From Eledone cirrhosa (Eukaryota): a DNA stretch of 25,100 bases. The stretch is taken from NCBI GenBank assembly GCA_964016885.1, contig CAXHJY010001583.1:1-25100 (forward strand). Reading direction: 5' to 3'. Position numbers and translations under genes: made by a program. Shown here in pieces: positions 458 to 17,992 of this stretch (within the stretch, counting starts at the first letter, position 1; each line of letters begins with the position of its first letter). The notes beneath the pieces were generated by a model. That model did no database searches. It worked only from the letters and a program-made list of their open reading frames with translations, and was not told where the DNA came from.

Positions 458-684
458 GGCGATGAATTAGTTTTGCGAGGTTTTTTATATGAAATCGTGT
501 GTCGAAACAGATATTGTTATATTTGGGGAGGGTCATATTTGCGTAATATTGCCAGAATTAATAACAGAACACACTCACTGTTTGGTTGGTTTTCGCTTCT
601 CGCTGTCTTTTATATATATAAATCTGCGATCTAACTTACTCGGTCCTCAATGTTGCCATTGACTGACCGGCGGTCAAAAATAAT
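458..684 (-). mobile_element. Inverted solo fragment of the Penelope-like element 3' end (pLTR tail)
   Basis: Nearly identical to 7871-8088 and reverse-complementary to about 3630-3797. It abuts (TA)n on the left and joins the SINE through a shared AATAAT on the right. Confidence 0.9.
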
Positions 685-858
685 TGTTTCTACTTTTGGC
701 ACAAGGCCAGCAAATTACCCAGTGCATTACTGGTACTTTATTTTATCGACCCCGTAAGGATGAAAGGCAAAGTCAACCTCGGCGGGATTTGAACTCAGAT
801 CGTAAAGGGACGTAACTATGCTGGAAAGCATGGCGTCCGACCCTCTACCGATACTTTG
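681..858 (-). mobile_element. tRNA-derived SINE (Octopus-type)
   Basis: Minus strand has an A-box-like GTATCGGTAGAG, a B-box GAGTTCAAATCC and the core TTTGCCTTTCATCCTTACGGGGTCGATAAAATAAAGTACCAG. Three homologous copies lie at 22617-23190. Confidence 0.85.
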
Positions 859-975
859 TATATATATATATATATACATGGCTTGTATATATATATATAT
901 ACATGGCTTGTATATATATATATATACATGGCTTGTATATATATATATATACATGGCTTGTATTATATATATATA
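859..975. repeat. 25-bp minisatellite (TA)8-CATGGCTTG x4
   Basis: CATGGCTTG at 877, 902, 927 and 952, separated by TA runs. Confidence 0.9.
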
Positions 976-14978: not shown

Positions 14979-15224
14979 ATATATATATATATATATATGA
15001 TAATTTATCTGAGTGTCCCGAATCTTCCATATCGAACTTTTCGGTTATTTGGTTGATTGTAGACATATTCTACGTGTGACGGTATTTTAACGATAGTTAT
15101 AGCTCTAATTTATTTGAATTATAGAGCCCTCTGCCGCTCATCTCGAATTTTGTTTATCGTGAACTCGTGCGCCGATTTTTCGATACTCGATTATTCTACT
15201 ATATATATATATATATATATATAT

Positions 15225-16042
15225 AAATTGGAATAAATGCTCTGAAATAGCGATATATATGTGAATATAGACATAGAATATTCGAAAATATTCTGTATGT
15301 TTATAATAAACATTTTGAAGACCTAATCGCTATAGAATAGAATACGTCACGTATTACAATTAGATTCTCGATAAAAGCAAGGGAAGTAATCTACGCGTTT
15401 CATTCTCGTTAGAAATCATCAGGACTACATATCCAGTGCTTTTATCGAGAATGACACAGCTAGAGACTTATAGAATACTTAGCTGTGTACAGGAACTGGT
15501 TTGAAAGAGCGGTTGCCGGTCCGGCAGAAATTAGAAATTGGAATAAATGCTCTGAAATAGCGATATATATGTGAATATAGACATAGAATATTCGAAAATA
15601 TTCTGTATGTTTATAATAAACATTTTGAAGACCTAATCGCTATAGAATAGAATACGTCACGTATTACAATTAGATTCTCGATAAAAGCAAGGGAAGTAAT
15701 CTACGCGTTTCATTCTCGTTAGAAATCATCAGGACTACATATCCAGTGCTTTTATCGAGAATGACACAGCTAGAGACTTATAGAATACTTAGCTGTGTAC
15801 AGGAACTGGTTTGAAAGAGCGGTTGCCGGTCCGGCAGAAATTAGAAATTGGAATAAATGCTCTGAAATAGCGATATATATGTGAATATAGACATAGAATA
15901 TTCGAAAATATTCTGTATGTTTATAATAAACATTTTGAAGACCTAATCGCTATAGAATAGAATACGTCACGTATTACAATTAGATTCTCGATAAAAGCAA
16001 GGGAAGTAATCTACGCGTTTCATTCTCGTTAGAAATCATCAG
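15225..16042 (-). mobile_element. Retrozyme-like 310-bp tandem array, left arm (~2.6 units)
   Basis: Exact 310-bp period (15231, 15541, 15851). Minus-strand HHRs at 15386-15428 and 15696-15738, plus a truncated one at 16006-16042. Confidence 0.92.
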
Positions 16043-17992
16043 ATACGTGACGTATTCTATTCTATAGCGATTAGGTCTTCAAAATGTTTATTATAAACAT
16101 ACAGAATATTTTCGAATATTCTATGTCTATATTCACATATATATCGCTATTTCAGAGCATTTATTCCAATTTCTAATTTCTGCCGGACCGGCAACCGCTC
16201 TTTCAAACCAGTTCCTGTACACAGCTAAGTATTCTATAAGTCTCTAGCTGTGTCATTCTCGATAAAAGCACTGGATATGTAGTCCTGATGATTTCTAACG
16301 AGAATGAAACGCGTAGATTACTTCCCTTGCTTTTATCGAGAATCTAATTGTAATACGTGACGTATTCTATTCTATAGCGATTAGGTCTTCAAAATGTTTA
16401 TTATAAACATACAGAATATTTTCGAATATTCTATGTCTATATTCACATATATATCGCTATTTCAGAGCATTTATTCCAATTTCTAATTTCTGCCGGACCG
16501 GCAACCGCTCTTTCAAACCAGTTCCTGTACACAGCTAAGTATTCTATAAGTCTCTAGCTGTGTCATTCTCGATAAAAGCACTGGATATGTAGTCCTGATG
16601 ATTTCTAACGAGAATGAAACGCGTAGATTACTTCCCTTGCTTTTATCGAGAATCTAATTGTAATACGTGACGTATTCTATTCTATAGCGATTAGGTCTTC
16701 AAAATGTTTATTATAAACATACAGAATATTTTCGAATATTCTATGTCTATATTCACATATATATCGCTATTTCAGAGCATTTATTCCAATTTCTAATTTC
16801 TGCCGGACCGGCAACCGCTCTTTCAAACCAGTTCCTGTACACAGCTAAGTATTCTATAAGTCTCTAGCTGTGTCATTCTCGATAAAAGCACTGGATATGT
16901 AGTCCTGATGATTTCTAACGAGAATGAAACGCGTAGATTACTTCCCTTGCTTTTATCGAGAATCTAATTGTAATACGTGACGTATTCTATTCTATAGCGA
17001 TTAGGTCTTCAAAATGTTTATTATAAACATACAGAATATTTTCGAATATTCTATGTCTATATTCACATATATATCGCTATTTCAGAGCATTTATTCCAAT
17101 TTCTAATTTCTGCCGGACCGGCAACCGCTCTTTCAAACCAGTTCCTGTACACAGCTAAGTATTCTATAAGTCTCTAGCTGTGTCATTCTCGATAAAAGCA
17201 CTGGATATGTAGTCCTGATGATTTCTAACGAGAATGAAACGCGTAGATTACTTCCCTTGCTTTTATCGAGAATCTAATTGTAATACGTGACGTATTCTAT
17301 TCTATAGCGATTAGGTCTTCAAAATGTTTATTATAAACATACAGAATATTTTCGAATATTCTATGTCTATATTCACATATATATCGCTATTTCAGAGCAT
17401 TTATTCCAATTTCTAATTTCTGCCGGACCGGCAACCGCTCTTTCAAACCAGTTCCTGTACACAGCTAAGTATTCTATAAGTCTCTAGCTGTGTCATTCTC
17501 GATAAAAGCACTGGATATGTAGTCCTGATGATTTCTAACGAGAATGAAACGCGTAGATTACTTCCCTTGCTTTTATCGAGAATCTAATTGTAATACGTGA
17601 CGTATTCTATTCTATAGCGATTAGGTCTTCAAAATGTTTATTATAAACATACAGAATATTTTCGAATATTCTATGTCTATATTCACATATATATCGCTAT
17701 TTCAGAGCATTTATTCCAATTTCTAATTTCTGCCGGACCGGCAACCGCTCTTTCAAACCAGTTCCTGTACACAGCTAAGTATTCTATAAGTCTCTAGCTG
17801 TGTCATTCTCGATAAAAGCACTGGATATGTAGTCCTGATGATTTCTAACGAGAATGAAACGCGTAGATTACTTCCCTTGCTTTTATCGAGAATCTAATTG
17901 TAATACGTGACGTATTCTATTCTATAGCGATTAGGTCTTCAAAATGTTTATTATAAACATACAGAATATTTTCGAATATTCTATGTCTATAT
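16043..17992 (+). mobile_element. Retrozyme-like 310-bp tandem array, right arm (~6.3 units)
   Basis: Reverse complement of the left-arm unit, with HHRs starting at 16279, 16589, 16899, 17209, 17519 and 17829. It ends in (TA)n. Confidence 0.92.
16279..16321 (+). ncRNA. Minimal type I hammerhead ribozyme of the 310-bp unit (representative of 8 complete copies)
   Basis: GTAGTC-CTGATGA-T-TTCT-AACG-AGAA-T-GAAA-CGCG-TA-GATTAC: palindromic CGCG stem III and GUA triplet, enclosed by the 16-bp stem ATTCTCGATAAAAGCA/TGCTTTTATCGAGAAT. Confidence 0.93.

Follow-up and report, generated by a model that had tools for sequence, protein, structure and literature searches.

A 25,100-nt stretch of the Eledone cirrhosa genome (assembly GCA_964016885.1, contig CAXHJY010001583.1, positions 1 to 25,100; hereafter, the window) carries a tandem array of a 310-bp unit bearing a hammerhead ribozyme, and the head-to-head arms and unequal 3' ends of this array match the tail footprint of Penelope-like elements (PLEs). 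The elements of this locus were probably inserted by target-primed reverse transcription of the Penelope type, in which more than one PLE family probably took part. (TA)n runs make up 12-15% of the window, and this animal locus is likely a (TA)n-rich sink that holds two truncated PLE insertion events, the very young 310-bp array and several short hammerhead-bearing 3' ends. Minimal hammerheads, the TA bias and PLE action in trans are already known; what appears to be new is a retrozyme array that bears the PLE tail footprint, together with an atypical PLE protein. All statistics are local to the window or come from four public runs (X2, X5, X10 and X23).

The left arm of the array (15226-16042, minus strand) comprises 2.6 units, with its 5' end at C3 of a hammerhead core and its 3' end at unit position 167; the right arm (16043-17992, plus strand) comprises 6.3 units and runs into (TA)n at unit position 122-127. 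The arms meet head-to-head at a blunt inversion junction (16042/16043), and there is no mismatch between the units in either arm. Their 3' ends, 167 and 122-127 nt past the predicted cut and both at (TA)n, differ by 40 nt. Eight of the nine type I hammerhead cores are complete, the ninth being cut at the junction. The unit is non-coding, the longest stop-free frame on the repeated unit spanning 59 amino acids (aa), and folds as a circle with a z of -4.3. Judged by its sequence, with tandem units within 150-450 bp, a hammerhead in consecutive units and no coding capacity, the array is a retrozyme of the kind that lacks long terminal repeats (a non-LTR retrozyme). It shares with animal non-LTR retrozymes (PMC7229834; 10.64898/2026.07.22.740005) the non-coding tandem unit of 150-450 bp, one type I hammerhead per unit, the low GC content and a weak palindromic stem III; the U-U mismatch at the base of stem II is also found in axolotl HHR_Amex2. 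Unlike the published retrozymes, it consists of two arms paired head-to-head in (TA)n, one of which has a 40-nt tail. The main texts of PMC7229834 and bioRxiv 10.64898/2026.07.22.740005 never use the word "tail" and contain "inverted" 0 and 1 times, and no report of a tail footprint on a retrozyme array was found in the open literature, preprint supplements being outside this search.

The resident PLE shows the same architecture. Three open frames that combine reverse transcriptase (RT) and GIY-YIG domains lie at 978-3272 (plus), 8458-9810 (minus) and 9812-11695 (plus) and are 99.4-99.6% identical. The initial annotation, made from the sequence of the window, had counted three young copies with intact frames; the frames are indeed open and nearly identical, but all are 5'-truncated, starting at profile positions 280, 599 and 422 of 1046 (many relatives are 1000-1200 aa long), and they belong to two insertion events. 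In one, copy 2 (7871-9810, minus strand), the inverted and 5'-truncated left arm with a 43-47-nt tail, is joined head-to-head and bluntly to copy 3 (9811-12231, plus strand), a 5'-truncated right arm that has no tail and ends in (TA)n. In the other, copy 1 (977-3797, plus strand), a 5'-truncated RT with C-terminal GIY-YIG and a 3' untranslated region (UTR) of ~525 nt ending in (TA)n, pairs with an inverted, 5'-truncated PLE 3' end at 457-684 (minus strand). This fragment is 99.4% identical to 3629-3802, has the copy 1 alleles at 3692 and 3741, and extends as a tail ~59 nt beyond the end of copy 1. Between the two lie a repeat at 679-858 (plus strand; 80-87% identical to 22621-23186), presumably a short interspersed nuclear element (SINE), and 25-bp TA-rich tandem repeats (861-976). 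The inverted arm thus reaches further 3' in both events, by 43-47 nt and ~59 nt, and the traits of endonuclease-bearing (EN+) PLEs, namely 5' truncation, an inverted upstream copy and a one-sided tail, are all present. The SINE-like family has at least four copies (679-858, 22612-23186), one of which lies, with a 5-6-nt overlap, at the inversion junction of the first PLE event.

Short counterparts of these structures emerge from a survey of 32 TA-bounded islands of up to 700 nt. Five are palindromic, and in three of the five one arm directly abuts TA while the other projects 68-87 nt further; palindromes like these three (4964, 6889 and 14817) arose in 0 of 100 shuffles each. The remaining two are the 14476-14550 hairpin and a GA/TC repeat. 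The micro-insertion at 4964-5164 is head-to-head, its left arm is 87 nt longer and TA lies on both sides; its hammerhead origin is unproven. The one at 6889-7057 (82% identical to 14817-14930) has a left arm 70 nt longer and has lost its core at the junction, and the one at 14817-14977 has perfect 46-bp arms, the left 68 nt longer. The arms of the 6889/14817 family hold GAAA, stem III, which is apparently longer, and a stem I strand; in contigs of run X5 the 14817 structure has a core (CTGATGA or CTGACGA) in its middle, and its junctions vary. By their sequence, 6889 and 14817 are micro-insertions of a further hammerhead family, and their footprint is also seen in the independent run X5. A reading of the three palindromes as miniature inverted-repeat transposable elements (MITEs) was rejected: their arms are central and asymmetric.

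In all six head-to-head structures (two PLE events, the array and three micro-insertions), (TA)n is found at both outer ends and one arm is 40-87 nt longer than the other; the 40-nt difference in the array compares with 43-59 nt in the PLE events and 68-87 nt in the micro-insertions. An inverted copy with a one-sided tail is described for PLEs (PMC8557442; PMC3846280), and in PAc, a Poseidon element of Anolis, the tail is the span between two internal RT starts, a signature called unique to PLEs (PMC11167929). Because their head-to-head arms and unequal 3' ends match this footprint, the array and the micro-insertions were likely inserted by a PLE-type enzyme. As a side observation, the longer, tail-bearing arm is the left, minus-strand one in 6/6 structures (457-17992; two-sided chance 0.03, post hoc), a bias that could reflect a polarity of the locus, e.g., the direction of replication or transcription.

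By analogy with one reconstituted PLE, the endonuclease would nick AT-rich DNA on both strands, and the RT would prime at two RNA-specific internal sites on a template that is uncleaved or circular; the spacing of these sites would become the tail. If the 310-nt RNA is circular or multimeric, the RT could run on over several units to give 2.6 and 6.3 identical copies; early termination of synthesis would produce the micro-insertions. The elements in the window share with PAc an AT-rich target, a tail between two internal RT starts and a hammerhead upstream of the starts; PAc differs in that it belongs to another clade and its hammerhead overlaps the start of the open reading frame (ORF), and the tails here reach 87 nt (PMC11167929). 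The helper of animal retrozymes has so far been sought by co-occurrence and by homology to PLE pseudo-LTRs (pLTRs); the array adds direct footprint evidence, predicting two exact priming sites at unit positions ~127 and 167.

Several observations weigh against this account of the locus. The window holds no full-length helper. Tails measure 40-87 nt and the 3' ends lie 21-269 nt past the cut, so no common ruler is apparent and the hammerhead is not a fixed one; published tails are 30-40 nt long, which places the 68-87-nt overhangs outside the range. No hammerhead core is demonstrated for the 4964 structure, target-site duplications are unreadable in TA, and the proposed mechanism is borrowed from a Poseidon element of another clade. 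Several 5' junctions lie at a hammerhead core, and the fold could thus matter to the RT; this pattern is partly biased, since the cassettes were found by their core.

The resident PLE has features that set it apart from the published scheme. Copy 1 encodes RT motif A (D211), motif B' (G346) and YVDD, and the GIY-YIG motifs (CCHH, catalytic R, H, E and N) follow at residues 654-750 of the same ORF; they are conserved in an alignment of 71 of the 121 relatives collected. A Pfam scan of the protein returned RVT_1 only, and GIY-YIG is present in 26-47% of the members of its Atlas neighbours. The best named relative of the RT protein is a hypothetical protein of Octopus vulgaris (69% identity). The CX4CxxC linker in front of the C-terminal endonuclease, with C633, C638 and C641 invariant in 71/71 sequences, falls within the CX2-5CxxC pattern of Neptune. 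The spacer from CxxC to the next C is 7 aa long (6-11 aa in 71/71 relatives), as in three Nematis rows of Fig S2 and in contrast to the 25-27 aa of four Neptune rows (PMC8557442), and so agrees with Nematis and not with Neptune. Motifs A and B' are 135 aa apart (residues 211-346, 1596-2010; 133-143 aa in 71/71 relatives), a distance that fits neither clade: by-eye counts in Fig S1 give ~64 aa in two Neptune rows, 65-67 aa in Penelope and Nematis (~67 aa in the latter), 88 aa in one Naiad and 122 aa in human telomerase RT (TERT) (PMC8557442). The C-terminal position of the endonuclease differs from the N-terminal one of Naiad and Chlamys.

A structure model of the protein (predicted local distance difference test, pLDDT, 90.7) is closest to TERT, which fills the best 12 VIA rows (best Z 15.8, root-mean-square deviation 3.7, 359 aligned residues) and the best six Foldseek rows, as would be expected of a PLE; sequence searches of the PDB with the protein gave distant RTs only. 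In whole-model alignments, which provide no residue map, 359-384 residues align with human TERT versus 354-363 with a shorter TERT (3du5, 6usq, 6usr). With RT followed by C-terminal GIY-YIG, the CX2-5CxxC linker, CCHH, the (TA)n bias and inverted 5'-truncated copies, the resident PLE is like Neptune and Nematis; it is unlike Neptune in spacer (7 versus 25-27 aa) and motif A-B' distance (135 versus ~64 aa), and unlike Nematis in the latter (~67 aa) (PMC8557442). The 7-aa spacer and the 135-aa distance thus point to an EN+ PLE that, by these sequence measures, is no textbook Neptune, the type to which it had initially been assigned: it combines a Nematis-like endonuclease linker with a fingers insertion of telomerase length. 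Such insertions have been assigned to PLEs with an N-terminal endonuclease and, sporadically, to Coprina (PMC8557442), and a widespread PLE lineage in which one accompanies a C-terminal endonuclease falls outside that scheme. Neptune is paraphyletic, and rows beyond those shown may differ (PMC8557442); the lineage with the telomerase-length insertion may sit within it. No other paper on a C-terminal-endonuclease lineage with such an insertion was found in the open literature, Repbase lying outside this search. Protein searches of metagenome contigs yielded 0/69 candidates and alignment searches of viral contigs 0/359; one genome-contig locus, at 33% identity, has no hammerhead or TA run within ~390 nt downstream.

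Beside the array, a strict type I descriptor recognizes the cores at 5281 (plus), 12553 (minus), 14403 (minus) and 14598 (plus), together with the eight complete cores of the array; no match arose in 200 block shuffles, nor in 300 dinucleotide shuffles of 17 islands whose actual sequences give 5. These four and the array make five minimal type I hammerheads that pass, whereas a further member of the initial list of cassettes, core 6711 (given there as 6707), fails and lies in a decayed cassette (6643-6808, plus strand) with a 4-bp stem I from which stem II was not recovered. The solo minimal hammerhead at 5241-5436 (plus strand) has a 6-bp stem I and a palindromic stem III and ends 125 nt past the predicted cut; that at 12361-12672 (minus strand) has a 5-bp stem I and ends 148 nt past it. 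Core 14403 lies in a cassette at 14211-14475 (minus strand) that ends 154 nt past the predicted cut, and core 14598 in one at 14551-14787 (plus strand), head-to-head with it. Both are multi-copy in run X5, where summed contig depths do not equal copy numbers. The two are weakly related (57% over 202 columns; z 3.5 among 380 pairwise cassette and island comparisons), and a broken hammerhead at 3826-3900 (minus strand; core 3871), which lacks GAAA, is related to the 14598 cassette (20/22 positions identical to its core region). A hairpin with 35-bp arms (14476-14550) separates the 14403 and 14598 cassettes; within it, CTG comes directly after a stem I strand that belongs to the 6889 family.

The extra nucleotide and self-complementary stem III that had been noticed in most cassettes are confirmed, and both are on record for PLE minimal hammerheads, along with solo occurrence, opposite-strand pairs and the 2-bp helix I of D. 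virilis (PMC4209133). Several hammerhead motifs of the window lack the G10.1-C11.1 pair. Stem III at 12509-12516 and 14640-14647 is a short (AT)n palindrome, so that the ribozyme carries a piece of the target repeat. Among the best 150 of 173 Rfam matches at E up to 1 there was no hammerhead family, most being microRNA models on TA runs, a blank that is no evidence against minimal hammerheads. The exact hammerhead pattern was found in 0 metagenome contigs; a loose pattern picked out 16 viral loci, of which five matched on recheck; these five have no TA runs and were dismissed as unrelated. Minimal hammerheads mostly occur solo and are probably truncated PLEs (PMC4209133), and the solo cassettes may most simply be monomers of further retrozymes or, as pLTRs, the 5'-truncated ends that other PLE families left; passengers and pLTR remnants of other coding PLEs may both fit. 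The array is the sole demonstrable non-coding passenger.

Every cassette, the 310-bp unit included, could instead be the pLTR of its own coding PLE, with the array arising by local tandem amplification of one pLTR, an account that is possible but rather less than probable. In Xenopus, pLTR matches are known for 24 of 57 retrozyme families, for which local amplification was proposed (10.64898/2026.07.22.740005); no pLTR homology was found for the 310-bp unit. The solo cassettes end 125-154 nt past the cut, like pLTR ends, and a loose end in run X10 extends ~119 letters past the arm of the palindrome family. Against this, both array arms are multimeric and mismatch-free around one inversion junction and have different, RT-like ends, which fits a single insertion from a multimeric or circular template, and the unit closes into a cyclic 340-nt contig in X2 and X10 (two of the three contig runs examined). 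A cyclic contig is equally compatible with a tandem DNA array and with a circular RNA. Nor did tblastn with 121 proteins, or a search by profile, reveal a coding remnant beside any cassette (the best E, 0.012, was at 19-90); both covered the clade of the resident PLE only.

That PLEs mobilise retrozymes has already been proposed (PMC7229834; 10.64898/2026.07.22.740005), PLE action in trans and head-to-head pLTRs are on record (PMC3846280), and a non-autonomous PLE partner is known from the Chlamys pair of Chlamydomonas (PMC9977147). The Chlamys pair and the pLTRs of Adineta share with this locus PLE enzymes acting in trans, microsatellite targeting and very short 5'-truncated insertions; there, the pair is assigned and the pLTR is shared, whereas here the passenger has no sequence in common with the resident PLE (PMC9977147; PMC3846280). 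The unnamed PLE lineage with C-terminal GIY-YIG and telomerase-length insertion might be a promiscuous helper that uses two-site priming to copy unrelated hammerhead RNAs, circular ones included, into (TA)n. This idea is unlikely as it stands; were it true, the tail footprint would be a genome-readable record pairing animal retrozymes with the enzyme that mobilises them.

The initial annotation had gone further and proposed that enzymes of the resident PLE type recognise hammerhead structure and so mobilise unrelated passengers in trans. Mobilisation by PLE-type machinery is borne out for the 310-bp unit, which its footprint suggests was likely moved in this way; the resident PLE as helper is unsupported, having no intact copy in the window and no sequence in common with the unit. 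With all three copies 5'-truncated, none can be an autonomous helper. A dedicated partnership, with the hammerhead fold as the recognition signal for the resident PLE and every cassette family mobilised by it, is rather improbable. It would agree with a footprint common to PLE and array, with the very young age of both, and with 5' junctions at or near the hammerhead core (16042, the centres of 6889 and 14817, and the X5 variants), in part an effect of ascertainment. As the initial annotation had noted, passenger and PLE share no visible primary sequence: comparison of the unit with the PLE 3' region, tail included, gives a score of 30 against shuffle means of 27 and 34. A search of the cassettes against PLE 3' ends, which it had suggested and which was run on the resident PLE, found no link to the 3' UTR above the shuffle maximum among the 380 comparisons (best z 3.3). 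The hammerhead-like motif of the PLE itself (3538-3600, plus strand; core 3554, with further cores at 8173, minus, and 11978, plus) has a 6-bp stem II and a proximal stem I of just 2 bp; it fails the strict descriptor and is weaker than any other hammerhead compared. In PAc, insertion proceeds normally with catalytic mutants and mainly uses unprocessed RNA, and an RNA that begins at +20, beyond core residues C3 and G8, is the shortest that still works (PMC11167929). Hammerhead catalysis and core are thus dispensable for PAc in vitro, which speaks against the hammerhead as the recognition signal.

Nor does TA flanking favour a dedicated partnership. The (TA)n bounding of the cassettes noted initially is real, but it hardly exceeds the local background and is therefore no evidence for a helper link: with a run of at least five TA units required on each side at a distance of up to 300 nt, the share of non-TA positions that qualify is 69% in 1-18100 once the PLEs and the array are set aside (3795 of 5530) and 35% across the whole window (3954 of 11180), and islands without hammerheads are likewise TA-bounded. 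The background may itself consist of PLE-type insertions. A TA bias is on record for Neptune and Naiad, including Octopus Naiads; since Naiads insert into (TA)n although they lack canonical hammerheads, a host of this kind can also harbour other PLEs with a TA target. Co-location at this locus likely reflects the shared TA target rather than a dedicated partnership with the resident PLE.

A reading without reverse transcription, in which the inversions would be assembly artefacts or would have folded back at the DNA level (as MITE-like hairpins or through break repair at TA runs), is very improbable. TA runs are fragile and abundant in the window, and the 16042/16043 junction is known from the assembly alone; but the inverted arms lie at the centre of the structures rather than at their termini and leave an overhang on one side only, a 68-70-nt overhang is kept in both of two copies that have diverged (82%), equivalent structures occur in the independent run X5, and the sole true terminal-inverted-repeat element (13539-14163) has symmetric ends.

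The 310-bp unit (15226-15845) recurs nearly unchanged elsewhere: among the matches listed, a fraction of 0.65-1.0 of its words is present in 20 of 24 runs (17 studies, 18 organism labels), and none of the listed holders is an RNA run. Four of the 24 runs were examined. In X2 the unit is present alone, at a depth of 6.7, and in X10 it is accompanied by low-depth pieces of neighbouring repeats and has two differences, one in loop II and one at an unpaired stem II base. Of 12.8 million raw Hi-C reads in X23, a single one maps to the stretch, and the unit receives none. This wide occurrence is likely due to carry-over of a sequence that is abundant, and a mobile RNA may lie behind it; horizontal spread was not used as evidence, carry-over or environmental DNA explaining the pattern equally well.

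Other parts of the window hold further repeats. The element at 13539-14163, with 23-bp terminal inverted repeats and TA flanks, is likely a MITE, presumably of pogo/mariner type. Three TA-bounded islands (13291-13527, 14999-15199 and 18013-18211) have no hammerhead, resemble one another (z 9.0 and 5.0) and may be 3' ends left by further elements whose copies stop short of the ribozyme. A GGT/GTT microsatellite array of 2.2 kb (18384-20600) gives rise to long low-complexity open frames. At 23230-24090 lies a probable decayed RT fragment, which we take to derive from a long interspersed nuclear element (LINE), with internal tandem duplications of 112-123 bp.

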